Assembly (NCBI GenBank): GCA_964499445.1
Contig: CAZCLE010000002.1
Span: 19,677 to 83,676 of the forward strand
Direction: 5' to 3'
DNA length: 64,000 bases
From: an uncultured Dehalococcoidales bacterium
GTDB lineage: Bacteria; Chloroflexota; Dehalococcoidia; Dehalococcoidales; GCA-2688105
Notes under the pieces: model-generated
Databases searched by the model: none
What the model was told of the DNA's origin: nothing
The model's input: only the letters and a program-made list of their open reading frames with translations
Program-made: the position numbers and the translations under genes
Shown: positions 14,530 through 30,172 of the stretch, in pieces
Numbering within the stretch: the first letter of the stretch is position 1
Layout of the letters: each line of letters starts with the position of its first letter

Positions 14530-15519
14530 GTGATGGCGGTATTGAACCGTCAAAAACCGGACCGTATGCCCTGCTTTACTGCCAACTCGACTATAACCTA
14601 CGACCAAATGGAAAAGGTGGGCGCCTTCTGGCCGGAAGGGCATGAAAAGGCAGAAGCCATGGCTAAACAGGCTATGGCTGCCTATACCGTACTAGGCTTT
14701 GATGTGGTAAGGGCCCCCTTCTGTCAGACCATGGAGGCTGAGGCTCTTGGTTGTCCCATAAAGTCCGGCGGCGAGAAAGGTATCCCCGGTATGGCACATC
14801 CAGAGGCATATTCACTAGATGATACCCCGGTGATTCCCGACGACTTTCTGTCACGGGGGAGAATACCGGAACTACTCAAGGCAATTACAATAATGAAGAA
14901 GGAACTGGGGGATGAGGTACTCATTGAGGGTGGAATTATCGGACCCTTCTCCATTGCCGCTTCTATGTTAGGGGTGACAAAAACACTGAAAGCTACCGTT
15001 AAGGCACCGGATAAGCTTCTCCCCTTCCTGGATGTAGCCGAAAGGGCAGGAACCATGTTAGCCCATGCCCTTATTGATGCCGGCGCCGACATCATCTCCA
15101 ATGAGGATATGAGTGCTTCTCCCGCTATTATAATGCCTAATAGTTACCATGACTTGGTATATGAATTCCAAGTCAAGCAGTTTGCGGAGATAAAGGTTCC
15201 CAAGATACTTCATATCTGTGGTGACGTGGGGCAGACCATAGAGTGGGAGGCGAAGAGCGGCCCCGAAATTTTGAGTATAGAACCTGCCACTGACCTAAAG
15301 AAAGCCAGAGAAAAAGTTGGAGAGAAGCCCATCTTTATGGGCGGGGTAGACACGGCTAATGTATTGTTTATGAAAGATGTAGAAACAGTAAAAGCGGAAT
15401 GCAGAAAGTCTATAGAGGCGGGTATTCAGATATTGGCTCCGGGCTGCGCCGTAGCCCCGGGTACACCCATAGAAAACCTTATGGCTATGGTGGAAGTAGC
15501 CAAAAGTTATACAAGTTAA
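14530..15519 (+). CDS. MtaA/CmuA-type corrinoid methyltransferase (URO-D family), paralog 1
   Basis: 329 aa. Motifs: DRMPCF, Zn ligands LHICGD and APGCAV. The conserved N-terminal KERV motif lies upstream of the called GTG, so the real start may be a non-canonical ATA at 14512 (see findings). Confidence 0.8.
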   Translation: MMAVLNRQKPDRMPCFTANSTITYDQMEKVGAFWPEGHEKAEAMAKQAMAAYTVLGFDVVRAPFCQTMEAEALGCPIKSGGEKGIPGMAHPEAYSLDDTPVIPDDFLSRGRIPELLKAITIMKKELGDEVLIEGGIIGPFSIAASMLGVTKTLKATVKAPDKLLPFLDVAERAGTMLAHALIDAGADIISNEDMSASPAIIMPNSYHDLVYEFQVKQFAEIKVPKILHICGDVGQTIEWEAKSGPEILSIEPATDLKKAREKVGEKPIFMGGVDTANVLFMKDVETVKAECRKSIEAGIQILAPGCAVAPGTPIENLMAMVEVAKSYTS

Positions 15520-15891
15520 TCAAAACCTTCACCGGTTTTGCCGAGATTAATTTATTGATAATCTATAATAACATTGCCAGAAGGAGGTAAGGCAGGGAAA
15601 AGAAGAGTATAAAGCGTGGGTCAAAAATACATGACTAAACCGGTAAGTTGACCTGTATATTAAGAATAGCAATGGCTATAATGTCTATATAGAACCCAGG
15701 TAAACGTGCTCTAATATATAATAAGAAACAAGAAGAATTTTGGACATAGTCTACAGGTAGTAAAAAGATTTTTGAGCAGAAAGGTATCATGTAGGCGAAA
15801 ACCTTAAGCGGATTTTTGGGTTATTAAGTACTTTAATATTTAGTACTTAGTTTACATAAATCCGCTCGTTGTTTATTATGGGCCAGAATAA

Positions 15892-16071
15892 TGGCTTGAC
15901 AAAAATTTAAGATGTGGTAAAGTAATATACAATTCGCCATCTGACAAAGAATTGAAATGTGGTAGAGTAATATAAAATTAGCCACTTGACAAAAAACTGA
16001 GGTATGGTAAAATAGCGCACAATTTGCCGCTTAACAAAAAACTGAGGTGTGACAGGTTAACATAAGTTTAT
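15892..16071 (+). repeat. Four tandem 45-bp direct repeats, each a -35 / extended -10 promoter-like module
   Basis: The hexamers TTGACA 15896, CTGACA 15941, TTGACA 15986 and TTAACA 16031 have a period of exactly 45 bp. Each is followed after 16 nt by TAAAGT, TAGAGT, TAAAAT or CAGGTT, and these are preceded by TGg (TGa in unit 4). Confidence 0.8.
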
Positions 16072-16169
16072 TCTCTAAAGCCATAATTAAACACGAAAGG
16101 AGGTGATACCCAAGAAGATAAATTTAAAGATAAATAGGAGCAAGCTATTTATTAAAAAGGAGGAAAAAA

Positions 16170-17552
16170 ATGGCTAGAAAACCAACTACTGCAATGGCAT
16201 ATAAGAGCGGCGATGAGATGATTTTCGGAACTACCAAGTTCCCGGTTACCAGCAAGAGGGGAATTAAGTACGGTGGAGGCTATGTCCATCCTACGATAAA
16301 ACCTCATCCCAGACCGGGCACCGAAAAGACCAAGAAGACCCTGATGCGGGAGTATGAAAAGATGAACTTCGATGCCCTGGAAAGAATGGTCATCGTGGGA
16401 CATCCTACTCTTGTGGTCGAGAATGAGCACGTCTTCCAGATGACTCATACCCCCGACTGGGGTGCCGATATCGCCGCCCTGACAGCTAGGATGATGGACG
16501 ATTTGCAGGCTAAATATGGGCTGAAGTCCGCTTATACGGCGACTATAGCCGACCTGCGCAGGCCAGAGAGCGTACACATGCGGACAAGCGATTATACCAA
16601 GGAAATCATTGAATCCTTTAAGGCGTGCTCCAAGTATGCCGACCATGTTTCCATTGAGTCCATGGGTGGTAAGGAAGTATTTGACTATGCCCTCATCCGC
16701 CAGGATATGGCGGGTATTTTATTTGGCATAGGTTATCTGGGCTCTAGAGACATGGAGTGGATGTGGGACCAGATTGTGGCTATTTGTAAGCAGAATAACT
16801 GCATTCCCGGCGGGGACACCAACTGCTCAGAGGCTAACACTGCCATGTTCATGGCAGGGGGTATGACATCCAAGGATGTGCCTCATGTATATGCCGCTCT
16901 AGCCCGTGCTATTTCGGCGGCAAGGACTATGGTAGCCTATGAGTGTGGTGCTACTGGACCTACCAAGGACTGTGCCTATGAGGATCCCATTGTCAAAGCC
17001 ATGACTGGAGTTCCTATCACCACCGAGGGCAAAACTAGTGCTTGCGGGCACTCCGACTTGGCCAGCAACCTGATTGCTGCCGTATGTGACCTTTGGAGCA
17101 ACGAGGCCGTGGAATATCACGATATGTTCGGTGCTACCACTACCTCGGTCTTCGCCGAGATACTCGGTTATGATTGCGCTCAGTTCAACTGCGCCATCGA
17201 CTTGGGTTTGGCGAAAGAGATGCAAACTATCCTGGTCAACTCTGACGCATATCGGGATTCCCACAGCCTGATTCTGGTGCCCGATAATGCCTGGGCGATA
17301 GGTAACGCCATCGTCAGCAACACGGCTAAGGGATACTACACCAGAGCCAGAGCCGGAGCCATGAAGGCAGGTAGTATCATCCTGGCTGATGCCAAGATGA
17401 AATTGACCGCCTTTGAAAAAGATGCCCTAGAGGATGCAATGAAGCAGATGGAGGCTCTGCCCGAGGATGAAGGAACCTTTGTCGATATGTGTATGAAGAA
17501 ATACACGAAGTTAGTGCCAGGCTTTAATCCTGATTCCTATGGATTGAAATAG
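16170..17552 (+). CDS. mtaB: Methanol:corrinoid methyltransferase
   Basis: 460 aa and collinear with my recollection of Methanosarcina MtaB. Motifs: AYKSGDEMIFG, SIESMGGKEVFDYA, GGDTNCSEANTAMF, GPTKDCAYED, EGKTSACGHSD, WSNEAVEYH, NPDSYGL. The Glu/Cys/Cys zinc-ligand contexts are conserved. Strong SD. Confidence 0.9.
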   Translation: MARKPTTAMAYKSGDEMIFGTTKFPVTSKRGIKYGGGYVHPTIKPHPRPGTEKTKKTLMREYEKMNFDALERMVIVGHPTLVVENEHVFQMTHTPDWGADIAALTARMMDDLQAKYGLKSAYTATIADLRRPESVHMRTSDYTKEIIESFKACSKYADHVSIESMGGKEVFDYALIRQDMAGILFGIGYLGSRDMEWMWDQIVAICKQNNCIPGGDTNCSEANTAMFMAGGMTSKDVPHVYAALARAISAARTMVAYECGATGPTKDCAYEDPIVKAMTGVPITTEGKTSACGHSDLASNLIAAVCDLWSNEAVEYHDMFGATTTSVFAEILGYDCAQFNCAIDLGLAKEMQTILVNSDAYRDSHSLILVPDNAWAIGNAIVSNTAKGYYTRARAGAMKAGSIILADAKMKLTAFEKDALEDAMKQMEALPEDEGTFVDMCMKKYTKLVPGFNPDSYGLK

Positions 17553-17690
17553 AAGTAGAGGACATTAGAAACATTGGTTCTGGGCCCACCCGGTAAAACT
17601 TTTGGTTATGTGAAAGTAGTCAAAAAGAAGCAGAATTAGGGGTGGCTTTCCTAGAATCACTTAGAATCAATTGATAAAAAGGAGGGAAGC

Positions 17691-18440
17691 ATGAAATTCT
17701 TGGCTGATTATTCTAATATTTTCAGACGCTACGACCTTGAGACTGAGGTGAAAAAGGAAGCGGCACGTAAAATCTCCAGTGACGCTGCTTTACAAGGGGT
17801 TGGCACTTTAGTTGTTGAAGGCGAAGCGGAAGACATTGAGCCAGCAGTCAAAAAGGCATTAGAGTCCAAAGACCCCATGACTGTTATTACTGATGGACTT
17901 ATCGCTGGCATGAATGAAGTGAGCCGTCTGTGGGATGAGGGCGTTTATTTTCTGCCCCAGGTTATTCTGGCCGCGGATGCCATGAACGCCGGCATCGTCC
18001 TATGCGAGAAGAAGATGGGCAAGCCCATGGCGAGGAAGGGTAAAGTGGTTACCCACACTGCTGAGGGTGATATTCACGACATCGGTCAGATTATCGCCAA
18101 CGCCCTTTTCAATGCTGGTGGTTTTGAAGTTATCAATCTGGGGTGTGATTGTCCGGTAGATACGGTTGTAGCCACAGTTAAGAAGGAGAAACCGCTTCTG
18201 GTTACCGGAACAGCCCTGATGACCACCACTATGACTGCTTTTCCGAAGATTTGCCACCAGCTTCAGGAAGCGGGGATAAACACCCCCTTTATCAGTGCTG
18301 GGGGAGCAGTCGCCGAAGAATGGTCAACCTCTTTTCCGCTGAGTATTTGGGGCAAAGAGGATTCCCAGTCAGTGCCACTGGCTGAAGATGCCCTAGGCGG
18401 TATGAGTTGGGAGGATATGCGGTCAAAGTGGAACGGATAA
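17691..18440 (+). CDS. mtaC: Methanol-type corrinoid protein (B12-binding, His-on)
   Basis: 249 aa. A helical cap domain precedes a Rossmann domain carrying the DxHxxG motif (EGDIHDIGQ). It lies immediately downstream of mtaB. Confidence 0.85.
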   Translation: MKFLADYSNIFRRYDLETEVKKEAARKISSDAALQGVGTLVVEGEAEDIEPAVKKALESKDPMTVITDGLIAGMNEVSRLWDEGVYFLPQVILAADAMNAGIVLCEKKMGKPMARKGKVVTHTAEGDIHDIGQIIANALFNAGGFEVINLGCDCPVDTVVATVKKEKPLLVTGTALMTTTMTAFPKICHQLQEAGINTPFISAGGAVAEEWSTSFPLSIWGKEDSQSVPLAEDALGGMSWEDMRSKWNG

Positions 18441-18461
18441 CGAGATAAAGAAAGGCAGAGG

Positions 18462-19442
18462 ATGATTGCAGATATTATCTTTGGTTTCTTAGGTTCCGGC
18501 AAAACCACTGTTATCGCCAATATCCTTAAGGAATGGGGGCGGGATGAAAAAATTGTAGTGTTGGTAAATGAGTTCGGCGAGGTGGGCATAGATGGGGACC
18601 TGTTAGCCAGTCAGCACGGTGATGTAGTAGAAATGCCCGCCGGCTGTATCTGCTGCACCCTTCAAGTGGACTTTAGACGCCAAATGCTGGAGATAAGTGA
18701 AACCATCAATCCGCAGAGGGTACTAATTGAGCCCACTGGTGTAGCTCAAATAACCCAAATAATGTACATCATACACGCCGAATTATTCAAGGATAGAATC
18801 GAAGAAATCCATAATATCCTGATTACCGATGCTACCAATTTCATCAATTTTTATCGGCTCAACCGAAATTTCGTTGAGTCGCAGGTAAAAAATGCACATG
18901 TGGTCTTGCTGAACAAATGCGATAGAGTCAAAAAAATACAAGCCGAGGTTACCAAAAACGCTATATCTGCAATCAATCCTCAAGTTCCTGTTCTTTTGAC
19001 TGAGTTTGGGGCAGTGGAGTGGGGCGAATACAAATCAGCCCTCTCCGCTGTCCCTTGTTTGTCAGCGGATTTTGAAGCGGAACCGTCTTCCCCGACAGGG
19101 GAAGTTGAAGAAGAGGGACTTATCCATCTCCACGAGGAGGAAGATACATTAGGCTATGAATCTTTTGGTTGTACTTATGAACTTTCTTTTGATAGGCAGG
19201 AACTGGAAAAGCTGTTTCAAGAGTTGTTAAATTCTACCCTTTTGGGCGAGGAAATAGTTAGAGCCAAAGGAATATTCAGGGTAGATAACAAATGGGTAGT
19301 GGGACAACTCGCCTCAGGAGAAGTTTCCTGGCAAGAAGTTAAAGGTGTCAAACAGAGTAAAATCTCAATAGTCGGGAGAAACCTAAAAAGGGAACTGATT
19401 GGGACCGCGGTCAACCGATGTTTAGCCGGGATTAGCGGTTAG
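18462..19442 (+). CDS. CobW/COG0523-family G3E GTPase (metallochaperone-like)
   Basis: 326 aa. P-loop GFLGSGKTT, the CxCC motif in AGCICCTL, NKCD, and a C-terminal CobW_C-like domain. It starts 21 nt after mtaC. Confidence 0.85.
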   Translation: MIADIIFGFLGSGKTTVIANILKEWGRDEKIVVLVNEFGEVGIDGDLLASQHGDVVEMPAGCICCTLQVDFRRQMLEISETINPQRVLIEPTGVAQITQIMYIIHAELFKDRIEEIHNILITDATNFINFYRLNRNFVESQVKNAHVVLLNKCDRVKKIQAEVTKNAISAINPQVPVLLTEFGAVEWGEYKSALSAVPCLSADFEAEPSSPTGEVEEEGLIHLHEEEDTLGYESFGCTYELSFDRQELEKLFQELLNSTLLGEEIVRAKGIFRVDNKWVVGQLASGEVSWQEVKGVKQSKISIVGRNLKRELIGTAVNRCLAGISG

Positions 19443-19658
19443 AAGGTCATTTCCTAATCTGTTACCACTCTGTGTTGCCGACGGGATAGGAGCGGCAAGC
19501 TTGCTCGGAGGAATCTTTAGAGGATTCAAAGCAAAGTTCGAGCAAGGACAGGGTTGTTTATTATAAGTACTCAGTTGGATTGAGGTTCGTCACTGGTTTG
19601 GAATTGAAAGTCAAGTGACATAAAATTTTCAATCCAACAAGAAAAGGAGGGAAGGAAA

Positions 19659-20168
19659 ATGGCAATACCAGTACTTATGGCAATTAGCCTTATGTGGATA
19701 CCTGTAGGATTGCTTAACCTGGGTAAAGGAGAAGCCAAGGGGACAGGTGCCCTTACCCTTATGGTGGGCACAGTCGTGATCATAGGCGCAATCATTCAGG
19801 CAACCATTTTCAAGGATCCGTGGATTGGCGCCCTGCTCTTCACATACGGCCTCTTTTACAGTATCGTCGGTTACGCCCTATTTACCGAACAGAAAGACAT
19901 TAAGTTCGTAGGCAACGCCAGTATTACGGTAGGACTAATATCCATTGGCTACATAATTCTCTGTTTAGCCGGCCCCGCTGCTTTAAGAAGCAACTTCCTG
20001 GCGCTGGCTTGCGCTGGATACCTGGTCCTCTATATCATGGTCTGGGGCAACGCATACGGCTGGCTCTCGGGCAAGATCACAGGTGTGTCACTCATCGTGT
20101 GGACGTTTGTGGGTCTCTTTGTCCCTGCCTTCTGGCTGGTGGCTACGGGTCAGTTGCCGTGGGCATAA
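19659..20168 (+). CDS. Small six-helix membrane protein, AmiS/UreI-like channel family (tentative)
   Basis: 169 aa. Helix pattern and segments (LLNLGKGEAKGTGALTLMVG, GALLFTYGLFY, GKITGVSLIVWTFVGLFVPAFWLVATGQ) resemble my recollection of the AmiS and UreI sequences. Strong SD. Confidence 0.5.
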   Translation: MAIPVLMAISLMWIPVGLLNLGKGEAKGTGALTLMVGTVVIIGAIIQATIFKDPWIGALLFTYGLFYSIVGYALFTEQKDIKFVGNASITVGLISIGYIILCLAGPAALRSNFLALACAGYLVLYIMVWGNAYGWLSGKITGVSLIVWTFVGLFVPAFWLVATGQLPWA

Positions 20169-20209
20169 GCGGCGGATTTGTTCTTATTTAGAGCAACAAG
20201 TGTAACAAG

Positions 20210-20280
20210 AGGAGGTTCACCGAATCACCTTATTGTTCGGGGAAGCAGTGAAATACGAGCATTCGGTGCGCCTCCTTTTG
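20210..20280 (+). terminator. Long terminator-like hairpin after the AmiS/UreI-like gene
   Basis: AGGAGGTTCACCGAAT (20210-20225) pairs with ATTCGGTGCGCCTCCT (20261-20276), followed by TTTG. The 35-nt loop contains an alternative TTCGG partner. Confidence 0.35.
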
Positions 20281-20570
20281 TATGTGCGTATGGTTACCCG
20301 ATTCATTTACCTTGGACTGAGAGGGTAATTACCAAATCATCATCCTAAGGTTCCCAAGGTAATAGTGGGCAAAGCGAAGCTAGCGATTGTTAGTAAACAG
20401 TATTGTGTCGGTCAGAGATTGCTATAATTCAGTATGAAGGTTTAGGATTTCCATCCCACCTTCTTATAGTGCTCTGTGAATGTTGGTTTGCTTGAGGTGA
20501 AAATTCGCCATATATGATAAAATCCTGTTAACGCTTAACTAATTCTTAGTCTTGAAGGAGAAATAATAAG

Positions 20571-21206
20571 ATGGCTGGAGAACAAAAATATGAAGAGTTC
20601 CGTCCCCTTGAAGAGGAAGATTTGCTTAATTATCTTCCAGATGTGAGCTACAGTGAATGTGGGGCGGACAGCGATGTGGAATATGCCGAACTGGTAATTG
20701 AAGGCAAAGCCATGCCTTCTAAATGTCCCATACTGGACGAAAAAATTGCGGCCGCGATGGAAAAAGTGTTTAAGCTTGAACTCCCTTCAATACCCGATAC
20801 CGCACCAGGGACACCGGTCAACTGTGGTATCATAAAAGTTGGAAATCCAACCGCTGATTCTATGGTACTGATAAACGGAAATTGTCAGGAAACTATTTCC
20901 GTCATAAAGTTTATCCTTGAAGAAACTCAAACCGATGCCTTTTTATTAGCCATAGATACCCAGGGCTACAGCATAGAGAATGCGCTGGCGGCAGGAATCT
21001 TTCAGCCTTCCGAAGTTTTTAAATCACTCGGCGAATCAGGGCTAGCCAATGAAATTAGCCATCGGAAGGTCATTCTTCCCGGATTGTGCGAGCCTTTGGC
21101 TGCGGATATTAAAAGGTTAGCCTCGTGGGATTGGGAGGTCACATTAGGTCCGGTTAGCGCCCTTGAATTGCCACTCTATCTCATAAAAATGGCTCAAGAG
21201 GCTTAA
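20571..21206 (+). CDS. Truncated CFeSP large-subunit (AcsC/CdhE)-like corrinoid-binding protein with a degenerate N-terminal Fe-S motif
   Basis: 211 aa. The N-terminus LPDVSYSECGADSDVEYAELVIEGKAMPSKCP parallels the LPxxNCGxCGxxTCxxFA...CP Fe-S domain but keeps only 2 of 4 Cys. The C-terminus FLLAIDTQGYSIENALAAGIF...SHRKVILPGL...WEVTLGPVSALELPLYL parallels the AcsC/HgcA corrinoid domain. No TIM-barrel middle domain is present. Confidence 0.6.
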   Translation: MAGEQKYEEFRPLEEEDLLNYLPDVSYSECGADSDVEYAELVIEGKAMPSKCPILDEKIAAAMEKVFKLELPSIPDTAPGTPVNCGIIKVGNPTADSMVLINGNCQETISVIKFILEETQTDAFLLAIDTQGYSIENALAAGIFQPSEVFKSLGESGLANEISHRKVILPGLCEPLAADIKRLASWDWEVTLGPVSALELPLYLIKMAQEA

Positions 21207-21337
21207 ATCTGTCACTTAACAATTAAGCAGAAATCAAGAATTAGTCCGACTCTTATAAAGGTCTAGATGAGTGGGTGCTTATTCGCCGAAATGGCTAAAC
21301 GAGCAATGATATGCCCGTAGTCGAATAAACTTCGTGG

Positions 21338-21928
21338 TTACAATTTGACCCCGATGAGAATAGTCCCCAAGCCTCGCTGATCAAGCCCTTCAAAATAGCC
21401 TTTCTTCAAAAATATATCACAAGGCGTGGTAGGCGTACCGTAAGTAATAGAATGATATGAAAAATCGCTTTCTTCCAGGACACGCCATTCTGCCGAGCCG
21501 CACGGAATCTCAAAATGGCACAACTTTTTCATGATATCCTGGGGGAAAGATATCTTGTCCTTGTAAATAACAAAATTTTTGTGCATAAACCAGACATTTT
21601 CCTTTTGGGACAGACTGGCGATGGTTTCTTCATCATGAACCTCTTCGCCCACCACCTCATCGCCCTTTCTTAAAATCAGGGAACAAGAGCCCCACTCAAA
21701 CTCCATGTCAGTTAGGGCTACATAGATTAAATCATAAGTTAAGACTTCTCTTACCCCGACGTTGACGACCTTACCCATACCCATCAAGGAGTGCTTTTCG
21801 GCATCCTCCTCGATGCCAAGGACCTCCTGCCTGTCTTTTTCGAGAAGAGGGCTGACGTCCACAATCCCCTTCACCTTTTTCAAGGCGGCTATCATCAGGG
21901 TATTTGCCCTCATCCGGTCTATGGTCAT
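21338..21928 (-). CDS. Hypothetical protein, no recognised domain, coupled to the RamA-like activase
   Basis: I prefer the ATG at 21928 (MTIDRMRANTL...), which is preceded by GGAGGAGAA. That start lies 26 nt downstream of the activase stop. Cys pattern CHFEIPCG...PCD. Confidence 0.55.
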   Translation of the reverse strand: MTIDRMRANTLMIAALKKVKGIVDVSPLLEKDRQEVLGIEEDAEKHSLMGMGKVVNVGVREVLTYDLIYVALTDMEFEWGSCSLILRKGDEVVGEEVHDEETIASLSQKENVWFMHKNFVIYKDKISFPQDIMKKLCHFEIPCGSAEWRVLEESDFSYHSITYGTPTTPCDIFLKKGYFEGLDQRGLGTILIGVKL

Positions 21929-21954
21929 TTCTCCTCCGACGCTGAACATCTACT

Positions 21955-23619
21955 TTATCGGACTTTAACTCCAGAGGTAAGCAGTTTAGTCAGGTCGAAC
22001 ACCTTTTCACTACAGGCCTGTTCACATCTACTACAGCCCATACCATCACATAGAGCCAGGTCAATGGTGATGCTAAAACCCTCCTCTTGCTCATCCTGGG
22101 AGAGGGCGTTCTCGGGGCATCTCTCGATGCACTCCTCGCAGCCGATACAGCCCTCGAAAATGATTCTTTTCAGTTCTCCGATGTCGGGAATAATCTTCAG
22201 TCCTTTAACCCCTAAATCGGGTATGTCTCTCTCCACAGTCTTAATAACCTGGGGAAGCTCACTGACCTCCTCCAGAGGGGGGAGCCCGTATCTTTTAAGA
22301 AATTGTTGATAGGTTTTCCAGGGCATACCCTCAGTCCAGAAAGACATTTCAAGCATGTAGACCTGCTTAAAAACTTCGGACTCGGCAAACATGCAGTGGT
22401 TTTGGCGCAGCTCAGTGGCCATCTTTTGCATGTTCCACAGTTCATCCACGTTTTTGACCATATCTCTGGACATAGCTAGAGAGGTATTTCCCACCTGGAA
22501 AACTCTCTTAACACTTGATGGTATCATGCCTATTTGCTGGGACTTCAGGGCATCAACATAGGTTCCGGAGGCGCCAGACATATAAGCCGTTTCTATTTTA
22601 CTCACATCTATGCCGGCTGCCTGGCAAAGGGCTACATGCCCGGCCCTGACCGCACCAATAGCCTTACCCGCCTCCGTAACATCGTGTTCGGTAAACTTGA
22701 TGCCGTTGGCAAGTTTAATTTCACCGTCTCCGGTACTGATTTTGGGAAGTTTAATCAGACCGGCCTTTAGTCCCTGGCTGAGTAAGGCAACCACTCCAGT
22801 GCCGGTAATGCCCACCGCCTCTAAGTCTCCTTTCTCCAGGACTTTTCCCGAACTGGGGACCACCTTATCCCCTTTTTGGACAAACATATCCTGGTCGAGG
22901 ATATAACACTGAAGTCCGCCTCCAGGAGAGCTTGTGTCGGGGAAATAATACTCGACATCAGAGATGGCGCCGGGGAGAGCTAAAAGCCCGTCTTCAATCT
23001 GTTGCCCTTCCAGGGCAGGCCCGGCAGCCGTGGAGCCGGTATAGACGACTCCCTCTACTATGAGGGACATTTCGTTGTTAGTACCGTAGTCGGTGACAAT
23101 GGAGATTTCCTCTCTTTCCAGCGCACCTGCCTGAATCATCATGGCTAGGGCGTCGGCTCCGATCTCGTGGCGGACCGCCGGTGGCACCAATATGTCTACG
23201 CCGGCTGGCAGGTCAAGACCTCTGATATCCCGGGACTTAAATATTTTGGCGTCTCTATTTGGAGGAACCACCCCCAGAGCTTCCAATTTTCGTTTCCCGG
23301 CATAGGCCAGGTCTCTTATCTCAATTTCCCTGAAAAGAGAAAGCTGGATAGGGTTGCCGCAGACAGCGGCTCGTATCACGTCGTTTTTTTCGATTCTAAG
23401 GTTGTCAATAACCCGGTTGACGGCATGAATAACTACATCGTGGGAGATTTCCAGTCCGACCTCCAGGGCAAAATGTAGGTGGTCGATTACATTGGCTCCT
23501 GGTAGGGGGTGTCGGGTGGTAATGGCAGTAGAGATTATTTTATTCCCGTTCTCCAGATCAATGGCTTGCCCTCTGAAGCCGCTGGTTCCTAAATCAAGGG
23601 CTATACCTAGTTTTCCCAT
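21955..23619 (-). CDS. RamA-type corrinoid reductive activase (ASKHA/DUF4445 with C-terminal 2x[4Fe-4S] ferredoxin domain)
   Basis: 554 aa. ASKHA phosphate-1 motif GIALDLGTSGFRG. The C-terminal CIGCEECIERCP and CDGMGCSRCEQAC motifs match the domain order described for Methanosarcina RamA (COG3894). Confidence 0.8.
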   Translation of the reverse strand: MGKLGIALDLGTSGFRGQAIDLENGNKIISTAITTRHPLPGANVIDHLHFALEVGLEISHDVVIHAVNRVIDNLRIEKNDVIRAAVCGNPIQLSLFREIEIRDLAYAGKRKLEALGVVPPNRDAKIFKSRDIRGLDLPAGVDILVPPAVRHEIGADALAMMIQAGALEREEISIVTDYGTNNEMSLIVEGVVYTGSTAAGPALEGQQIEDGLLALPGAISDVEYYFPDTSSPGGGLQCYILDQDMFVQKGDKVVPSSGKVLEKGDLEAVGITGTGVVALLSQGLKAGLIKLPKISTGDGEIKLANGIKFTEHDVTEAGKAIGAVRAGHVALCQAAGIDVSKIETAYMSGASGTYVDALKSQQIGMIPSSVKRVFQVGNTSLAMSRDMVKNVDELWNMQKMATELRQNHCMFAESEVFKQVYMLEMSFWTEGMPWKTYQQFLKRYGLPPLEEVSELPQVIKTVERDIPDLGVKGLKIIPDIGELKRIIFEGCIGCEECIERCPENALSQDEQEEGFSITIDLALCDGMGCSRCEQACSEKVFDLTKLLTSGVKVR

Positions 23620-24005
23620 AACTCCTCCTGGTAAAAAATCAGTCTTTTACTTTCGCACTTTCCTGCTGCCAATTTGTCAGGGTTAATCGTTCAAAGCCTC
23701 TTCCAGCGCTGCTTATCAGGCTGGTGCTTGAACTATCATGGCGACAACTCTCGCCTGAGAGCAAGTGAAATTCTCGACCCTAATATACTAGACGGTAGCT
23801 TGGATGTCAATAAGTTGGAGTGATATCCGGCGGGGGAAACAAAGAGGTTTTGGAAGCGGGTATTTGGGAAGGTATTGCCGGAGCCCAGAATCTGCTGAAG
23901 CTGGGGATATTGAGATGCTACCACAGAGAGTAGTGGTATAAACTTTTTTCAGGTGGGTTGGAGAAATAATCAACTTTTTAACATAACCAAAGCAATGCAG
24001 AGCTA

Positions 24006-24035
24006 TTGACAATGAAGCTAGAAACAGCTTATAAT
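24006..24035 (+). promoter_or_regulatory. Consensus sigma70-type promoter of the second corrinoid operon
   Basis: TTGACA (24006-24011), 18-nt spacer, TATAAT (24030-24035), 35 nt upstream of the ATG at 24071. Confidence 0.55.
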
Positions 24036-24070
24036 CTCATTATCACTATAAATAAAAGGGAGGAAAAAGA

Positions 24071-24754
24071 ATGGCTTCAGAGGAGAGAGCTAAGGAATTA
24101 TTTAAAGGACTTCAGGAGGCGGTGATAATCTGGGATGAGGACAAAGTAGTGGAGCTTTGCCACGCTGTCATAGATGAAGGCGTAGACCCCTATGACGCCA
24201 CCATGGATGGTCTGGCGGCTGGAATGCAGGCGGTAGGCGACCTGTATGAAAAGAAGGAATACTTTGTCCCAGAACTTCTGATGTGCGCCGATGCGCTGTA
24301 TGCCGGGTTGGACCTCCTAAAGCCGGCTATCGTTGCCTCAGGAAGAAAGTCAAAGGTAAAAGGGTCAGTAGTCATCGGTGTTGTTGAGGGCGATGTTCAC
24401 GACATCGGCAAGAACTTAATCAAGATGATGTTTGATGTTGCCGGCTGGAATGTCTTTGACCTGGGAAAGGACGTAGAACTGAGTAGGTTTGTGGAGGAGC
24501 AAATAAAGACCGATTCTGAAATTGTGGCTATGTCAGCTATGATGACGACCTCCATGATGGGCATGCCCAAGGTCATTGAGATGATAAAGGCGAAAAATCC
24601 CAAGTGTCGCATCATGATAGGTGGCGCTCCGATAACCACCGATGTGGCGAAAAAATATGATGCTGACGGATACGCTGAGAGTGCCGCAACCGCAGTTGAG
24701 GAAGCGATGAAACTGATTGAAATGTTAAGGAAAGAAGAGGCAGCGGCAAAGTAA
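24071..24754 (+). CDS. Cobalamin-binding corrinoid protein (MtxC / O-demethylase CP type)
   Basis: 227 aa. A B12-binding-2 cap helix bundle precedes a Rossmann domain with DxHxxG (EGDVHDIGKN) and MSAMMTTSM. Confidence 0.85.
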   Translation: MASEERAKELFKGLQEAVIIWDEDKVVELCHAVIDEGVDPYDATMDGLAAGMQAVGDLYEKKEYFVPELLMCADALYAGLDLLKPAIVASGRKSKVKGSVVIGVVEGDVHDIGKNLIKMMFDVAGWNVFDLGKDVELSRFVEEQIKTDSEIVAMSAMMTTSMMGMPKVIEMIKAKNPKCRIMIGGAPITTDVAKKYDADGYAESAATAVEEAMKLIEMLRKEEAAAK

Positions 24755-24894
24755 AAAAATAAAATCACAAAAGGCAAAATACAAAGATGATATGGTACTA
24801 AGACAGATATAAAATGAATCAGGGGATTGGATGAGTGCGATGCGTAGTAGTCATCCGCTAGATCGAATCCCCTTTATTTGGAAAGGGAGGAAAT

Positions 24895-26853
24895 ATGGCA
24901 GAAAGCACAAATCAAGAGCATGTGGTCATCTTTCAACCGTCGGGACGTAGAGGCTCCATCAGTGATGGGAAAAACCTCAAGGAGGCTTCCGTAGCACTGG
25001 GTGTGGACATAGAAGGCGTCTGTGGTGAAAAGGCTACCTGCGGCAAGTGTAAGGTTAGGATAGAAGACGGGTTCTTCGAGAAATACGGTGTTGAATCAAA
25101 GATGAGCAATCTCACTCCGCTAACAGAAGCGGAGAGAAAGTTTATCAACGCACATGCGGAGAAAGAAGGTTACCGACTGGCTTGTCAGGCTTGGATTAAA
25201 GGTGATGTTGTGGTCTTCGTCCCTGAGGAGAGCCGAATGGGAAAGCAGGTTGTGCGCAAAGCGGCGAGGGAGATAGACATCGAGCTGAACCCGGCGGTGA
25301 AGAAATACTATGTGGAACTAGCTAAGGCTACCTTGAATGATACCTTGGGCGACTGGGAGCGTATACAGGCCGAGCTTAATAAACGTTTTGGCTTGAGCAA
25401 TCTAACCATTGACTATCAGGTGCTCCTGGAAGAACAGAAAATAGTACGTCAGGGCAATTGGAAGGTGACCGTATCAGTCTGGATGGATAAAGAGGTCATC
25501 AAGATAGAGCCCGGGCTTGTGGAGAAAGGCTATGGTCTGGCAGTCGACATTGGCACCACCACGGTAGCTGGCTACCTCTGCGATCTGTCCAGTGGCGAGA
25601 TAGTAGCCACCGAGTCTATGATGAATCCGCAAGTGCTTTACGGCGAAGATGTGATGTCCCGCATCACTTATAATATGAGCCACGACGACGGCTTGGAGCT
25701 GATGGCCCGGGAGATTATTAAGGGTCTTAATCAGATTGCGGGGCGAGCCGCTGCTCAGGCAAACATCAAGCGGCGGGATATCGTTGACATGACCGTTGTC
25801 GGCAATACTTGCATGCATCATCTCTTTTTAGGTATTGATACCCACCATATCGGTATGGCTCCTTTTCCCCCGAGCCTACATCACTCTATAGATGTTAAGG
25901 CGCGCGACTTGGACCTCAAGATATCTCCAGGGGCTTACGTTCATGTGCTTCCCATTGAGGCTGGTTTCGTAGGGGCTGATAATGTAGGGGTGCTCATCAC
26001 AGAGGCGCCCTATAATCAGGATGCTATGGAGCTTATTATCGACATTGGCACCAATGGTGAGTTAATCCTGGGCAACCGGCAAAAGCTCATTTCTTCCTCC
26101 TGTGCCACCGGCCCAGCCTTCGAGGGAGCCGAGATGAAATACGGAATGCGCGCCGCCCCGGGGGCTATCGAAAGGATAGCGATAGACCCGGATACTAAAG
26201 AGGTGAGCTTCAAGGTTATCGGTAAGGAGGAGTGGAGCACGGAGTCGGAGGATATGGGGGCTAACGGTATTTGCGGCTCAGGGATAATTGATGTCGTCCC
26301 CCAATTGTTCAAGGCGGGTATTATCAACCACACCGGTCGCTTCAACAAGGATTTGACTACCCCCCGTTTCCGTGAGACTGAAGAGGGAGGAGAATTCATA
26401 ATCGCTTGGGCAAATGAAACCTCCATTAGCCAAGATATCGTAATTTGCCAGAGTGACATAAGGAACATACAGCTAGCCAAAGGGGCTATGTATGCCGGAG
26501 CCAAGCTGATGATGCGTCACCTGGGTCTGGAGAAAGTGGACAAGGTTATTCTAGCCGGAGCCTTCGGCAGCTACATCGATAAGGAATCAGCGGCATGCTT
26601 GGGTCTTTTCCCTGATTGTGATTTAGAGAATGTCTACGCTGTGGGTAACGCCGCCGGTGATGGCGCCCGCATAGCCCTCCTCAATGTGGATAAACGAAGG
26701 GAAGCTGACGAAATGGCAAGGCAGGTGGAATACATAGAATTAACTGTGGAACCGGATTTTGACAAGGTTTTTGGCGAAGCTATGTGGCTACCTCACATGA
26801 AGGACAAGTTCCCTCACATTGAGCACCTTCTCCCTGAGAAGGCGGTGAAATAA
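24895..26853 (+). CDS. RACo-type corrinoid reductive activase (N-terminal plant-type [2Fe-2S] ferredoxin plus ASKHA/DUF4445)
   Basis: 652 aa. Motifs: CGEKATCGKCKV...LACQA (2Fe-2S), GLAVDIGTTTVAGYL, and ASKHA motifs further on. Confidence 0.85.
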   Translation: MAESTNQEHVVIFQPSGRRGSISDGKNLKEASVALGVDIEGVCGEKATCGKCKVRIEDGFFEKYGVESKMSNLTPLTEAERKFINAHAEKEGYRLACQAWIKGDVVVFVPEESRMGKQVVRKAAREIDIELNPAVKKYYVELAKATLNDTLGDWERIQAELNKRFGLSNLTIDYQVLLEEQKIVRQGNWKVTVSVWMDKEVIKIEPGLVEKGYGLAVDIGTTTVAGYLCDLSSGEIVATESMMNPQVLYGEDVMSRITYNMSHDDGLELMAREIIKGLNQIAGRAAAQANIKRRDIVDMTVVGNTCMHHLFLGIDTHHIGMAPFPPSLHHSIDVKARDLDLKISPGAYVHVLPIEAGFVGADNVGVLITEAPYNQDAMELIIDIGTNGELILGNRQKLISSSCATGPAFEGAEMKYGMRAAPGAIERIAIDPDTKEVSFKVIGKEEWSTESEDMGANGICGSGIIDVVPQLFKAGIINHTGRFNKDLTTPRFRETEEGGEFIIAWANETSISQDIVICQSDIRNIQLAKGAMYAGAKLMMRHLGLEKVDKVILAGAFGSYIDKESAACLGLFPDCDLENVYAVGNAAGDGARIALLNVDKRREADEMARQVEYIELTVEPDFDKVFGEAMWLPHMKDKFPHIEHLLPEKAVK

Positions 26854-26871
26854 GCTCCGGGAGGTATATTA

Positions 26872-27807
26872 TTGATGCTTAAATATGACTTGAAACAAAA
26901 GGTCTGTAACATTGGTGGTGTGAAAGTAGGCGGTCAGCCGGGAGAGAATCCCCCTCTTCTAATCGGCAATATGTTCCAGAAGGGGGACATACTCATTGAG
27001 AGCCGGAAGGAGCGCAAGTTCAACAAGGAGGGAGCTAAGGAGCGCATCCACGAGATGGAGCGCCTCTCCCAGGAGACAGGTGTGCCCGGCTTGGTAGGCA
27101 TGGTCGCTAACGCTCTAGATGAAGTAAAGACTTATGTGGACTTTTTTACCAGCGTGACCAAGATGCCTTTTGCCATTGATATCTGGGTGCAGAAGACGAG
27201 ACTAGCCGCAGCCCGCTATGTGGCTGAGCTAGGGCTCCAGGACCGATTACTTTACAACAGCATCACCCCCTGGGACGAGGACATCGAAGCCCAGGTGGCG
27301 GAACTCAAGGAACTGGGTATCAAGCATGTTGTAATTCAGGCGTTTGATGTAGAGGATATGGGGCCCCGAGGCAGGGTCTCGTCACTCAAGAAGTTGCTAC
27401 CTATGGTGGAGAAGGGGAATTTTGAGAGCATCTTGGTGGACACAGCGGTAATGGGCTTACCGCTGACCGCCTTCTCGTTGATAGGCAATCGTCTGGTCAA
27501 GGAGGAGTTTGGACTACCGGTGGGCTGTGCTCCCTCCAACGGCACCTACATGTGGAAGAAAGCTGTGGGAGCGGAGGGCGCAAGCAAGTTCCCGCCTGTG
27601 GATGCTGCTATAGAGGCAATAACCGCTATGGGAAGCGACTTTATTTTCTATGGTCCCATGACCGGCACCGGCAGGGTCTTCGCTGCGGTGGCTGCCGCTA
27701 TCAGCCTGCTTGCCACCTGGGCTTATGACGAGGGAGCACCCTTACCCACTGAGGGTCACCCTTTGAATCTACTCTTCCCTGAGGTAGTAGAGCAATTATC
27801 AAAATAA
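26872..27807 (+). CDS. mtrH: MtrH-family methyl-corrinoid:pterin methyltransferase
   Basis: 311 aa. N-terminal GGVKVGGQPGENPPLLIGNMF matches the MtrH signature FGGQPGE. The rest is collinear with my recollection of MtrH. The start could instead be the ATG at 26875. Confidence 0.8.
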   Translation: MMLKYDLKQKVCNIGGVKVGGQPGENPPLLIGNMFQKGDILIESRKERKFNKEGAKERIHEMERLSQETGVPGLVGMVANALDEVKTYVDFFTSVTKMPFAIDIWVQKTRLAAARYVAELGLQDRLLYNSITPWDEDIEAQVAELKELGIKHVVIQAFDVEDMGPRGRVSSLKKLLPMVEKGNFESILVDTAVMGLPLTAFSLIGNRLVKEEFGLPVGCAPSNGTYMWKKAVGAEGASKFPPVDAAIEAITAMGSDFIFYGPMTGTGRVFAAVAAAISLLATWAYDEGAPLPTEGHPLNLLFPEVVEQLSK

Positions 27808-27827: not shown

Positions 27828-28916
27828 ATGGGAGCAGAACTTAGTTCCAGAGAGCGAGTGCTTCGATTTCTTAGGAAGGAAAAGGTAGACCGCATCCCCT
27901 GTTTCTCTGGCATGGGGAATGTACTGGTGGAAGAGGTAGAGCGTCTTGGTTGGCGTTTCGGAGATTTGCACCGAGATGCTCATAAGATGGCAATGGCGGC
28001 AGCAGCCACATACCCAGCCACCGGGTTTGAGTGTGCCGTAGTTCCCTATGATTACCACCTAGAGGCTGAATCATTAGGCTCCGTAGTTCGGTTTTACGAG
28101 AAGAAGGAAGGAGAAGAAGAAAGAATCATTTATCCTATCGCATTGCACGAATTGACGGAGAAGCTGGAGGACCTGGACCTTGAGGCGATAAAGAAGAAAA
28201 AGCCATTCGAGTTGGGAAGGATACCTCTAGTAGCTGATGCGATTCGCCTTTTGAAAAAGGAGATAGGCGACCAGGTAGCAGTCGGCGCTTATACCTTGGG
28301 TCCCTACGGCGTAGCCGGGGCAGTAGATTCTGTTGTTGACCTATCTAAGAATGTAGTGAAGAATAGAGACCTGGTGCACAAGCTACTGAAGGTTCTGACT
28401 GACTACATCGCTCAGGAGGTTAAGTTTTTCAGAGAGGCTGGCGCCGACTATGTGTGTATCCGTGAGATGACATGCGCGACAGATCTTTTAAGCCCGAAGA
28501 CGTATGAAGACCTGATTTTGCCTCATTTGCAGGACTTGTTCTCCCAGATAGACCACCCAAGGATTCTGCATACCTGTGGCGACACAGATGACGATATGAT
28601 ATATATGATTAAAACCGGGGCTGATTTCATCTCCGTAGAGCAAAAGAATCATATATGGAAGTCAAGGGAGACGATGAAGGGGACTGATATACGCCTCATG
28701 GGGAACTTGGACGTCTACCAATTGATGGCGATGTCGACACCTGAACAGATTGACCAGCAAGCCAAGCTAGTTATTGGTGAAGGTCTTGACGCATTATGGC
28801 CTGCCTGTGATATATGGCCAGAGGCGCCTGTGAAGAACATAAAAGCGCTGGTGGAAGCAGCCAAGAAATACAGCGACCCTGAGAACCCGGTCCCGGGGAC
28901 TCTCTGGTCCAAGTGA
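27828..28916 (+). CDS. MtaA/CmuA-type corrinoid methyltransferase (URO-D family), paralog 2
   Basis: 362 aa. Motifs: SRERVLRFLRKEKVDRIPCFSGMGN, Zn ligands LHTCGD and WPACD. Confidence 0.8.
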   Translation: MGAELSSRERVLRFLRKEKVDRIPCFSGMGNVLVEEVERLGWRFGDLHRDAHKMAMAAAATYPATGFECAVVPYDYHLEAESLGSVVRFYEKKEGEEERIIYPIALHELTEKLEDLDLEAIKKKKPFELGRIPLVADAIRLLKKEIGDQVAVGAYTLGPYGVAGAVDSVVDLSKNVVKNRDLVHKLLKVLTDYIAQEVKFFREAGADYVCIREMTCATDLLSPKTYEDLILPHLQDLFSQIDHPRILHTCGDTDDDMIYMIKTGADFISVEQKNHIWKSRETMKGTDIRLMGNLDVYQLMAMSTPEQIDQQAKLVIGEGLDALWPACDIWPEAPVKNIKALVEAAKKYSDPENPVPGTLWSK

Positions 28917-29134: not shown

Positions 29135-30172
29135 ATGGAAACAGAACTTAATTCTAGAGAACGAGTGCTCAGGCTTTTTAGAAGGGAAAAGATAGACCGC
29201 ATTCCTGTCTTCAGTGGTCTGGGGAACATAACCGTAGATGGAATTGAGAAATGTGGTTATAAATTCGTAGGTGTCCATGAAGACGCACGCAAAATGGCGG
29301 ACGTGGCTGCAGCCACGTTCCAGATGTATGGCTTTGAGTGTGCAGTAGTCCCTTTTGACTTCGGGATTGAACCCCAAGCTTTAGGCTGTGAGGTTAATTT
29401 TTACCCTCACCATGAAGATGTTATCTATCCCACCATAAAAAAGAATCTTGCCGAGCATATAGAGGACCTGAATATCCACGTGCCCTCGGATTTAGCCAAC
29501 GCGGGGAGGATACCCGTGGTGACCGAAGCAATTCGTCTCCTGAAAGAGGAAGTAGGCAAGCAAGTGGCAGTGGGAGCCGTGATTCTGGGACCATATACCT
29601 TAGCCGGGCAGATCACCGACCCCGGGAACATGGCTAAGTTGGCGTTTAAGAAGCCAGACATGGTTCATAAGTTGCTGGACATTCTGGATGAGGTTGAAAT
29701 CGAGACCGCCAGGATTTATAAAGAAGCCGGTGCCGATTATGTAACCATCCATGAGATGGCAGCGGGAGGAGATATATTAAGCCCGCGTATGTTTAGATCT
29801 GTAGTACAGCCTCATATAGAACGAATCCTGTCCACTATGCCCTCGCCGAAGGTCCTGCACATGTGTGGCGATACGGATAGCATTGTTGAGGACATGGTAC
29901 TCTGTGGAGCCGATGCCATCAGCGTAGAGCAAAAGAACCATATAGCCGAGACCAGGCAGAAGGTGGGGCCTGATGTGCTCATCTTTGGAAATATTGACAC
30001 TTTCAGGTTGATGGCGACAGGAAAACCTGAAGATGTTGAAAGAGCGGTAAAGCGGGCTATTGACGAGGGTGTCAATGCCGTATGGCCCGGGTGTGATATG
30101 TGGCCAACCGTGCCCAAGGAAAACATGGAAGCGCTAATGGCAGCGACGAAGAAATATGGTAAGCTTGGGTAA
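29135..30172 (+). CDS. MtaA/CmuA-type corrinoid methyltransferase (URO-D family), paralog 3
   Basis: 345 aa. Motifs: SRERVLRLFRREKIDRIPVFSGLGN, Zn ligands LHMCGD and WPGCD. Confidence 0.8.
   Translation: METELNSRERVLRLFRREKIDRIPVFSGLGNITVDGIEKCGYKFVGVHEDARKMADVAAATFQMYGFECAVVPFDFGIEPQALGCEVNFYPHHEDVIYPTIKKNLAEHIEDLNIHVPSDLANAGRIPVVTEAIRLLKEEVGKQVAVGAVILGPYTLAGQITDPGNMAKLAFKKPDMVHKLLDILDEVEIETARIYKEAGADYVTIHEMAAGGDILSPRMFRSVVQPHIERILSTMPSPKVLHMCGDTDSIVEDMVLCGADAISVEQKNHIAETRQKVGPDVLIFGNIDTFRLMATGKPEDVERAVKRAIDEGVNAVWPGCDMWPTVPKENMEALMAATKKYGKLG

Follow-up and report, generated by a model that had tools for sequence, protein, structure and literature searches.

A barrel-less CFeSP-type corrinoid protein in a methanol methyltransferase island of an uncultured Dehalococcoidales bacterium

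Anaerobic methyl transfer by corrinoid proteins has so far been described with two scaffolds, the His-on scaffold of MtaC and MetH and the His-off scaffold of CFeSP (corrinoid iron-sulfur protein) and HgcA, the latter of which is known solely from acetyl-CoA synthesis and mercury methylation. A 64,000-nucleotide stretch of DNA from an uncultured Dehalococcoidales bacterium (contig CAZCLE010000002.1 of assembly GCA_964499445.1, positions 19,677 to 83,676; hereafter the window) contains, in an island of methanol methyltransferase genes, a gene for a 211-residue protein that is here termed mini-CFeSP. Mini-CFeSP is a soluble two-domain protein made of both ends of the CFeSP large subunit without the TIM barrel that lies between them. 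It is a member of a family through which the CFeSP-type corrinoid domain is also very common as a stand-alone protein of ~205 amino acids (aa), and the barrel-less proteins of this family are an old third lineage of the corrinoid domain beside CFeSP and HgcA. Searches of the literature (on truncated or AcsC-like CFeSP, on Dehalococcoidia with MtaB and on RamA accessory factors) found no description of the barrel-less architecture. It is a third architecture of the CFeSP/HgcA corrinoid-domain family, with a conserved link to the activase RamA, and the cluster-less form found in the window, with Tyr27 and Asp35 in the cluster motif, is a further sub-variant.

Architecture and cofactor site of mini-CFeSP

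The gene and the parts of its product are as follows.

20571-21206, + strand: gene for the barrel-less CFeSP-type corrinoid protein (mini-CFeSP), 211 aa (open reading frame (ORF) and sequence)
20554-20560, + strand: ribosome-binding site GAAGGAG, 10 nucleotides (nt) 5' of the mini-CFeSP ATG (read from the sequence)
20571-20780, + strand: helical former [4Fe-4S] domain of the PF04060 type, aa 1-70 (family profile; ratio of non-synonymous to synonymous substitution rates, dN/dS; predicted local distance difference test score, pLDDT, >90)
20649-20726, + strand: positions of the CX2CX4CX16C motif, Y27 (20649-51), C30 (20658-60), D35 (20673-75) and C52 (20724-26) (alignment A1)
20814-21188, + strand: CFeSP/HgcA-type corrinoid-binding domain, aa 82-206 (Pfam, NCBIfam, PDB, Foldseek, invariant residues)
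20964-20996, + strand: cap-helix segment G132-Y-S-I-E-N137-A-L-A-A-G142 (HMMER alignment to 2h9a)

Mini-CFeSP consists of a PF04060-type N-terminal domain, a linker of ~15-20 residues and a CFeSP/HgcA-type corrinoid C-terminal domain; the central TIM barrel of CFeSP (~255 residues) is absent. The corrinoid domain was matched by Pfam PF03599 (aa 77-191, E 1.5e-11), by the NCBIfam models for CdhE/AcsC, the gamma subunit of acetyl-CoA decarbonylase/synthase (positions 324-448 of 450, E 3.7e-28), for HgcAB-like proteins (E 2e-21) and for HgcA (E 5e-17), and by PDB entry 2h9a_A (residues 317-431, E 2.4e-17); the scores for all three NCBIfam models are far below the curated equivalog cut-offs. When the family profile was compared with 2h9a it matched residues 6-58 (E 2.7e-8) and 314-444 (E 5e-25), with nothing between. 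The PF04060 match of the window protein alone is weak (E 0.056, below cut-off), and the assignment of the N-terminal domain is secured by the first of these profile matches together with orthologues that carry the full CX2CX4CX16C motif in equal columns. The profile also matches the N-terminal Fe-S domain of RnfB (9eri_B, 7zc6_B and 8ahx_B; E about 3e-3). The window protein has 22 close homologues in a large protein database, nearly all of 205-211 aa. Modelling with AlphaFold on this 22-sequence alignment gave a pLDDT of 57, and was repeated with 129 homologues, which gave a pLDDT of 93 and a predicted template modelling score (pTM) of 0.89. A Foldseek search with the latter model found significant PDB matches solely to CFeSP large subunits (4c1n_G, the best, and 2h9a_A, 2ycl_A, 4djd_C and 9fzy_F; root-mean-square deviation (rmsd) 2.1-2.9 Å over ~131 residues) and to the HgcA model 9a0b_A (E 6e-7). 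A first-pass annotation of this DNA, made from its letters and ORFs, had read the product as both ends of the CFeSP large subunit with the TIM barrel missing and the Rossmann corrinoid domain well preserved, and had proposed a structural comparison with CFeSP and HgcA; the Pfam, NCBIfam, PDB and profile matches bear this reading out, down to the gap between residues 58 and 314 of 2h9a, and the comparison, now run, returned just those proteins.

The cofactor contacts common to CFeSP and HgcA are a Thr pair, the backbone of the cap helix and a PG loop (PMC7305189). In 129 family sequences, N104, T108, G171, P194, E199 and P201 are invariant, D129, G132, A138 and P170 are near-invariant, and at position 102 only T, S and N occur; the CFeSP/HgcA-type corrinoid-contact positions are, as judged from the alignment, kept in the mini-CFeSP family. 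The cap-helix region of the window protein reads GYSIENALAAGIF and is Cys-free, as is the whole of region 129-145. Asn137 (20979-20981) aligns, in the HMMER alignment to 2h9a, with Thr374 of the Carboxydothermus hydrogenoformans CFeSP, which is found on the alpha face of the cofactor, 3.2-4.6 Å from Co, and forms no bond to cobalt (PMC4934906). The residue predicted to lie beneath the cobalt varies within the family: this column holds Met in 107/129 members and Asn in 16/129, and it is His in 12 of the 13 Methanomassiliicoccales copies examined, with Asn in the copy from locus L014 (loci fetched for comparison carry L numbers). As side observations, Met at this column co-occurs with Cys in the GP-x-C loop (position 196), and the subclade of the window has gained Cys105 and Cys173, which adjoin two cofactor-contact loops. 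The sole His of the window protein, H164, lies outside any DxHxxG motif. Since mini-CFeSP has no DxHxxG motif and has Asn137 where CFeSP has Thr374, it would be expected to bind cobamide base-off/His-off, as CFeSP does. The lack of DxHxxG and of the HgcA cap-helix Cys motif had both been pointed out in the first-pass annotation, and both observations hold.

Only two of the four motif cysteines are kept in the window protein, Cys30 and Cys52, as had also been noticed; multiple alignment puts Y27, C30, D35 and C52 in the motif columns. The four-Cys motif is intact in Dehalococcoidales sister sequences (P0018-P0022), orthologues that are 53-62% identical to the window protein. Within the window's own clade the columns read Y/C/D/C in 17/17 two-Cys cluster representatives, so that Tyr27 and Asp35 are fixed. 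The patterns found in 129 family members are CCCC (46), VSAC (20), YCDC (17), CACC (11) and CAPC (7), plus many rarer ones; cluster loss is therefore recurrent, and it is also seen within the archaeal sub-family. The column of C52 is Cys in 127/129, even where the other three cysteines are gone. Comparison of the whole mini-CFeSP gene with the orthologues of L001 and L004 gave a dN/dS of 0.25-0.27, with residues 1-75 at 0.10-0.15 and residues 76-211 at 0.33-0.35, by which a pseudogene or decay is ruled out. The N-terminal domain is under strong purifying selection and is the more constrained half of mini-CFeSP; as it is so constrained without a canonical cluster, it must have a cluster-independent role. 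The earlier description of the Fe-S motif as ‘degenerated’ is therefore not upheld, Y27 and D35 being fixed in 17/17 and the constraint on this domain exceeding that on the corrinoid domain. The repeated disappearance of cluster cysteines from a domain that stays conserved and retains one Cys amounts to a natural experiment on the role of the N-terminal domain.

Family, phylogeny and authenticity

Family alignments A1-A3 were built, and a tighter archaeal alignment (A5) was used for the metagenome survey described below. An exhaustive profile search, which covered 1.84 billion representatives, returned 821 relatives, and about 30 of the best 150 are proteins of ~200-220 aa that match from end to end. 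At E <= 1e-10, a search with a broader alignment brought up at least 327 barrel-less clusters of ~205 aa (clustered at 90% identity). The signature of the family is a length of about 200-215 aa and a corrinoid domain that ends in GP-x-[CS]-x-x-E-[LIV]-P, both of which fit the window protein. In a distance-based, neighbour-joining tree of the corrinoid domain, all true short proteins group together, distinct from the clades of CFeSP and of HgcA-like proteins, with bootstraps for the short, CFeSP and HgcA-like clades of 85, 87 and 95 of 100 (computed on a 58-sequence subset); the tree is midpoint-rooted, and the barrel may have been either lost from the short proteins or gained in CFeSP. The family is present in both bacteria and archaea, and the window's clade occurs, as far as its genomes are named, in metagenome-assembled genomes (MAGs) of Dehalococcoidia/Dehalococcoidales, with taxonomy as stated in the MAG records.

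The first-pass annotation had described the barrel as ‘deleted’, and had named a sequencing or assembly artefact as an explanation that would refute its reading. Neither a local deletion nor such an artefact is upheld, for the barrel-less proteins make up a large and old family with a clade of its own, counted as at least 327 clusters at 90% identity. Both an assembly artefact and a recent internal deletion are ruled out by hundreds of independent homologues of ~205 aa together with the separate clade. The view that this is an uncharacterised corrinoid protein and not an orthologue of CFeSP or HgcA, which was part of the same annotation, agrees with the separate clade and with the scores below cut-off. 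In public databases, members of the family are annotated as ‘hypothetical’, as ‘(Fe-S)-binding protein’ or, misleadingly and in many JGI/IMG records, as ‘CO dehydrogenase/acetyl-CoA synthase gamma subunit’; this last mis-annotation can inflate Wood-Ljungdahl calls in MAG and metagenome studies.

The conserved gene neighbourhood

The island around the mini-CFeSP gene is made up of the following features; mtaB and mtaC were identified by Pfam and NCBIfam models.

14530-15519, + strand: MtaA-like methylcobamide methyltransferase of the URO-D family (PF01208 E 3e-64; NF004889 302 bits against a cut-off of 244)
16170-17552 and 17691-18440, + strand: mtaB, methanol:corrinoid methyltransferase, and mtaC, its His-on corrinoid protein (for the pair: PF12176 E 1e-194; NF040651 645 bits; B12-binding and B12-binding_2 domains)
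18462-19442, + strand: CobW/COG0523 G3E GTPase (PF02492 E 4.7e-40, plus CobW_C)
19659-20168, + strand: 169-aa membrane protein, weakly AmiS/UreI-like, directly upstream of the mini-CFeSP gene (PF02293 E 3e-4, below cut-off)
20154-20175, + strand: terminator-like hairpin at the end of the 169-aa membrane-protein gene (consensus scan only)
21338-21949, - strand: unk203, conserved 203-aa protein (orthologues in L001, L002 and L004-L007, 71-84% identical)
21955-23619, - strand: RamA-type reductive activase for corrinoids, ATP-dependent, 554 aa (762 bits with TIGR04270, cut-off 500)
24071-24754: MtgC/MtbC-like corrinoid protein of a second corrinoid methyltransferase system
24895-26853: Fer2-type RACo, second system
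26872-27807: MtrH-family methyltransferase, second system
27828-28916 and 29135-30172: two MtaA/CmuA-family proteins, second system
30434-31123: DUF2284, second system
31197-31820: BtuR/CobO adenosyltransferase, second system
31946-34569, strand opposite to BtuR/CobO: CobQ and a BtuF-like binding protein

In total the island has three corrinoid proteins and two activases, and six-frame translation of the window found no second corrinoid domain of the CFeSP or PF03599 type. The RamA of the window has a RACo middle domain, an ASKHA domain and C-terminal 2x[4Fe-4S] (Pfam RACo_C_ter, Raco_middle and Fer4_7). When the window proteins were compared with the fetched loci by tblastn, an equal gene set was found in every Dehalococcoidia locus with enough flank (the window and L001-L008), with ramA adjoining the mini-CFeSP gene. 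In the four-Cys loci L006 and L007, ramA, unk203 and the mini-CFeSP gene lie on one strand with gaps of 9-16 nt; they are a single operon, convergent with the mtaB-mtaC-cobW-membrane gene set, and this operon is the ancestral arrangement. In the window's clade the mini-CFeSP gene alone is inverted relative to this order. A 400-nt spacer separates it from the terminator-like hairpin, and the arrangement is consistent with separate transcription of the mini-CFeSP gene within this clade. Rfam found no cobalamin riboswitch or other RNA element in the spacer, the lone match in the window being a tRNA (55900-55973), and a promoter scan upstream of the gene found no convincing sigma-70-like site.

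A related module was found in archaea. In the Methanomassiliicoccales loci L013 and L014 a four-Cys copy is part of an operon, cobW-unk146-ramA-mini-HD, beside divergent mtaB-mtaC, and the archaeal metagenome survey found this arrangement in 11/20 loci (the contexts examined exclude the cluster-less archaeal variants P0370 and P0375-P0380). A further, RACo-linked relative (L015) adjoins a Fer2-type RACo, DUF2284 and DUF1638. Bacterial and archaeal versions share 48-50% identity in RamA, 45-47% in MtaB and MtaC and only ~31% in the mini protein, and the module has probably spread across both domains of life through transfer. Between the two-Cys and four-Cys clades of Dehalococcoidia the mini protein, at 56-60% identity, is the most diverged, with its neighbours at 67-92%; the branch of the window-clade mini proteins is long relative to the four-Cys sisters, and this divergence would be consistent with a shift after cluster loss. 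The first-pass annotation had regarded the protein as an unusual extra carrier of this island, a view superseded by the finding that it is a conserved module member in Dehalococcoidia and Methanomassiliicoccales. The neighbourhood survey that it had suggested bore out a widespread short architecture and brought out a link to RamA that the annotation had missed. The conserved association with RamA, CobW and MtaBC, seen in bacteria and archaea alike, suggests an unrecognised component that serves the activation or maintenance of methanol methyltransferases or the routing of methyl groups.

Two further genes of the module are candidates for a part in it. The 169-aa membrane protein is conserved in L002-L004 and L006-L008, and in L001 its slot is filled by an MIP/aquaporin-type channel (8856-9518); because the AmiS/UreI-like and MIP types are both small neutral-solute channels, it may be a methanol uptake facilitator. 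The product of unk203 has no similarity in Pfam, NCBIfam or PDB, by single sequence or by profile, and is unrelated to the archaeal 146-aa ORF (unk146) at the equal operon position; it has one invariant Cys, within KLCHFEIP. As unk203 lies between ramA and the mini-CFeSP gene with near-overlapping ends in the ancestral operon, its product is likely to be a physical partner of RamA or of mini-CFeSP.

The link to RamA does not extend to the whole family. Distant members, here called ‘TVDMA’ members (Thermodesulfobacteriota, Nitrospirae and others), adjoin folC, hisG, an aminotransferase gene or unrelated genes, by which a universal RamA link is ruled out; linkage to RamA, CobW and MtaBC therefore characterises a single sub-family. 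Those beside folC or hisG, which belong to the large ‘TVDMA’ clade, seem to be housekeeping genes themselves and have no methyltransferase gene close by. In Thermodesulfobacteriota the short gene begins inside the end of a folC-like Mur-ligase gene, and a Nitrospirae contig has it 6 nt after hisG (L009:6731-8627; L010:7119-8627). An Asgard copy of the family adjoins lipid genes.

Four-Cys paralogues of mini-CFeSP were also found directly beside the gene for the ACR3 arsenite pump in ars operons, in 8/20 of the archaeal loci and in the bacterial locus L017.

L017:8001-8618, L028:6001-6627 and L031:5753-6379, and also in L026, L027, L029, L030, L036 and L038: ACR3-adjacent mini paralogues

In the archaeal operons, which are on Methanomassiliicoccales-type contigs, the gene after the copy usually encodes DUF6951, a small protein in which three Cys are conserved; the ars-linked operons also hold arsR, arsA, arsC or arsD. 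A flavodoxin also follows the copy in L028 and L029, and an MtaA-like gene is next door in L031. The ars-linked copies form a clade separate from the RamA-linked copies. It has been shown that methylotrophic methanogens, including Methanomassiliicoccus, demethylate di- and monomethyl-arsenic anaerobically, by a mechanism that has been called unclear and is presumed to be corrinoid-dependent, and none of the three reports names a gene of the mini type (PMC6776024, PMC10579292, bioRxiv 10.64898/2026.08.27.747368). It might be, although this is rather unlikely, that the family as a whole consists of small carriers of methyl-corrinoids for general use, which would add a third functional branch to CFeSP, used in acetyl-CoA synthesis, and HgcA, used in mercury methylation. 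The RamA/MtaBC-linked copies, including the cluster-less variant of the window, would then serve the methanol system, and the ACR3-adjacent copies would be the missing corrinoid component of anaerobic methylarsenical demethylation, or would drive corrinoid-dependent arsenic methylation. As genes that can be cloned, the ars-operon paralogues offer a concrete candidate for the mechanism by which arsenic is demethylated anaerobically in paddy soils.

The island of the window looks like a mosaic (14530-27807). From mtaA to the mini-CFeSP gene it is closest to L001 and L004 (80-91% identity), and unk203, ramA and the second corrinoid protein, RACo and mtrH-like genes are closest to L002, L003 and L007 (80-93%). 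The switch is at the junction of the mini-CFeSP gene and unk203, the site of the inversion, where L002 and L003 have insertion sequence (IS)-type HTH_Tnp genes. Elsewhere in the window, a gene for a B12-binding radical SAM enzyme (39881-41269, - strand) lies among glycosyltransferase genes and has as a neighbour a gene for a 926-aa UPF0182 membrane protein (35768-38548, - strand); they are unrelated to the finding and add another cobalamin-dependent function to the region.

Possible functions and comparison with known systems

The reading that is tentatively favoured is that mini-CFeSP may act as an auxiliary Co(I)/methyl-Co(III) carrier, serviced by RamA and attached to the methanol methyltransferase system. 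In this scheme the C-terminal domain would bind the cobamide base-off/His-off, with Asn137 under the cobalt and the nucleotide tail sunk into the Rossmann-like domain, and the cofactor would alternate between Co(I) and methyl-Co(III), being oxidised now and then to inactive Co(II), as in both characterised relatives. In four-Cys relatives the protein's own cluster could supply the repair electron; in the window's clade the adjacent RamA alone would supply it, with ATP and two [4Fe-4S] clusters, and the former cluster domain is conjectured to survive as a module for capping or docking. Obvious candidates for donor or acceptor of the methyl group would be the island's TIM-barrel methyltransferases. 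RamA is reportedly, from work of Ferguson et al. in 2009, the ATP-dependent reductive activase of methylamine corrinoid proteins. In CFeSP the [4Fe-4S] cluster serves reductive activation of the cobalt by re-reducing Co(II) (PMC7305189), and the binding of RACo-type activases to the Co(II) corrinoid domain has been shown to be direct, via RACo Ser398 (PMC4934906). As CFeSP and HgcA carry methyl groups and the cluster of CFeSP re-reduces Co(II), the ancestral short protein would most likely have been a Co(I)-cycling protein with built-in repair; and since activases of the RamA family recognise Co(II) corrinoid domains directly (4c1n), the simplest reading would be that mini-CFeSP is a client of RamA.

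Several points weigh against a carrier role. MtaC is already the methyl carrier of MtaB, so that a second carrier is not obviously required, and no need for a mini-type protein is known in methanogens such as Methanosarcina. The mini gene sits with accessory or maturation genes (ramA, cobW and an HD hydrolase gene) and not in the catalytic mtaCB operon, a position no less in keeping with a role in repair or as a chaperone. Four-Cys forms are linked to RamA too, which blurs the correlation expected if RamA replaces the cluster. A methyltransferase partner dedicated to the protein was not found at the loci examined, and distant members of the family are found in unrelated housekeeping contexts.

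The main rival, which is possible but unlikely, is that of a corrinoid chaperone or holder that would take salvaged base-off cobamide and, with CobW and RamA, load or reload MtaC, without carrying a catalytic methyl group. The place of the archaeal mini gene in an accessory operon (cobW-unk146-ramA-mini-HD) divergent from mtaCB speaks for such a role, as does the BtuR/CobO, CobQ and BtuF-like protein content of the island of the window, and it would parallel the servicing of methylmalonyl-CoA mutase by an adenosyltransferase and MeaB. G3E GTPases include the B12 chaperone MeaB, and the bacterial and archaeal modules alike retain CobW; CobW is, however, equally possible as a zinc chaperone for MtaB. 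Moreover, the characterised relatives, CFeSP and HgcA, are all methyl carriers, the ancestral low-potential [4Fe-4S] domain is best explained by Co(I) chemistry on the protein's own cobalt, and the paralogues in ars operons and housekeeping contexts have no nearby corrinoid enzyme to load.

It is less probable still that mini-CFeSP is an adaptor or redox partner that docks RamA, possibly together with the unk203 product, and aids its engagement with the tight MtaBC complex or relays electrons, with the corrinoid domain as a recognition handle. The tight coupling of the ramA-unk203-mini operon and the conservation of the N-terminal domain without a cluster would fit this, but RamA already has two [4Fe-4S] clusters of its own and was reportedly active in vitro without such a factor, again in the work of Ferguson et al. 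in 2009. RACo-type activases do bind CFeSP-type corrinoid domains (PMC4934906), and the complex 4c1n gave the best Foldseek match; the conserved corrinoid-contact residues nevertheless argue for real binding of the cofactor, and the ars-linked paralogues have no RamA nearby.

More improbable again is a carrier for metals or metalloids, in which methyl-Co(III)/Co(I) would exchange methyl groups with arsenic or soft metalloids and be fed by the methanol system. The paralogues beside ACR3 in 8/20 archaeal loci and in L017, the sister lineage HgcA and the demethylation of methylarsenicals by methylotrophic methanogens, presumed to be corrinoid-dependent (PMC6776024, PMC10579292), make this conceivable, but no ars, DUF6951 or mercury genes were found in the window, the ars-linked and the RamA-linked copies fall into different clades, and the cap helix lacks Cys. 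That the gene is a non-functional remnant of a CFeSP gene, left by internal deletion or assembly error, is effectively refuted, since the two missing cysteines and the branch that is long relative to the four-Cys sisters are outweighed by a length of ~205-211 aa that recurs in hundreds of independent contigs and samples, a dN/dS of 0.25 with the N-terminal domain the more constrained part, the fixed Y27/D35 substitutions, a good ribosome-binding site and a clade separate from CFeSP.

Among known systems, the likeness to RnfB (PF04060) is limited to the N-terminal domain of ~50 residues, and RnfB has no corrinoid domain. The MtaC/MetH type (PF02310 plus PF02607), which occurs twice in the island, resembles mini-CFeSP in being a small stand-alone corrinoid protein that is found with a RamA/RACo-family activase and methyltransferases, and in having a small helical N-terminal domain ahead of a Rossmann-like cofactor domain. 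It is, however, an unrelated sequence family (a PF02310 search of the mini protein found no match), MtaC is His-on via DxHxxG, and its cap is a four-helix bundle and not a PF04060 domain. HgcA and HgcAB-like proteins have the corrinoid-domain superfamily in common with mini-CFeSP (Foldseek match to 9a0b_A, E 6e-7) and likewise have no TIM barrel in the polypeptide. The cap helix of HgcA carries the motif N(V/I)WCA(A/G)GK with its essential Cys (PMC7305189); mini-CFeSP lacks this motif, the C-terminal five-helix membrane domain and an adjacent hgcB, for the protein ends 5 residues past the corrinoid domain and the downstream gene is unk203, on the opposite strand. Mini-CFeSP also has an N-terminal Fe-S-type domain that is absent from HgcA, scores 62 bits with NF040863 against a cut-off of 275, and falls in a separate clade (HgcA split 95/100).

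The closest comparison is with the CFeSP large subunit (AcsC/CfsA/CdhE gamma; 2h9a, 2ycl, 4c1n, 4djd and 9fzy). Mini-CFeSP differs from it in lacking the TIM barrel that pairs with the small subunit and in having two of the four cluster Cys; there is no AcsD/CdhD small-subunit gene and no CODH/ACS or MeTr operon, the neighbours of the mini gene being mta, ramA and cobW; and the NF003195 score is 98.6 bits against a cut-off of 306, with the corrinoid domain in a separate clade. The two nevertheless have in common an N-terminal domain in CX2CX4CX16C register, a corrinoid domain of about 32% identity (rmsd 2.1-2.9 Å), the lack of DxHxxG and a polar, non-ligating residue beneath the cobalt (Asn137 in mini-CFeSP, Thr374 in CFeSP). 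CFeSP is serviced by an activase of the RACo/RamA family and the mini gene adjoins the gene for one; by analogy, mini-CFeSP would work most like the corrinoid domain of CFeSP.

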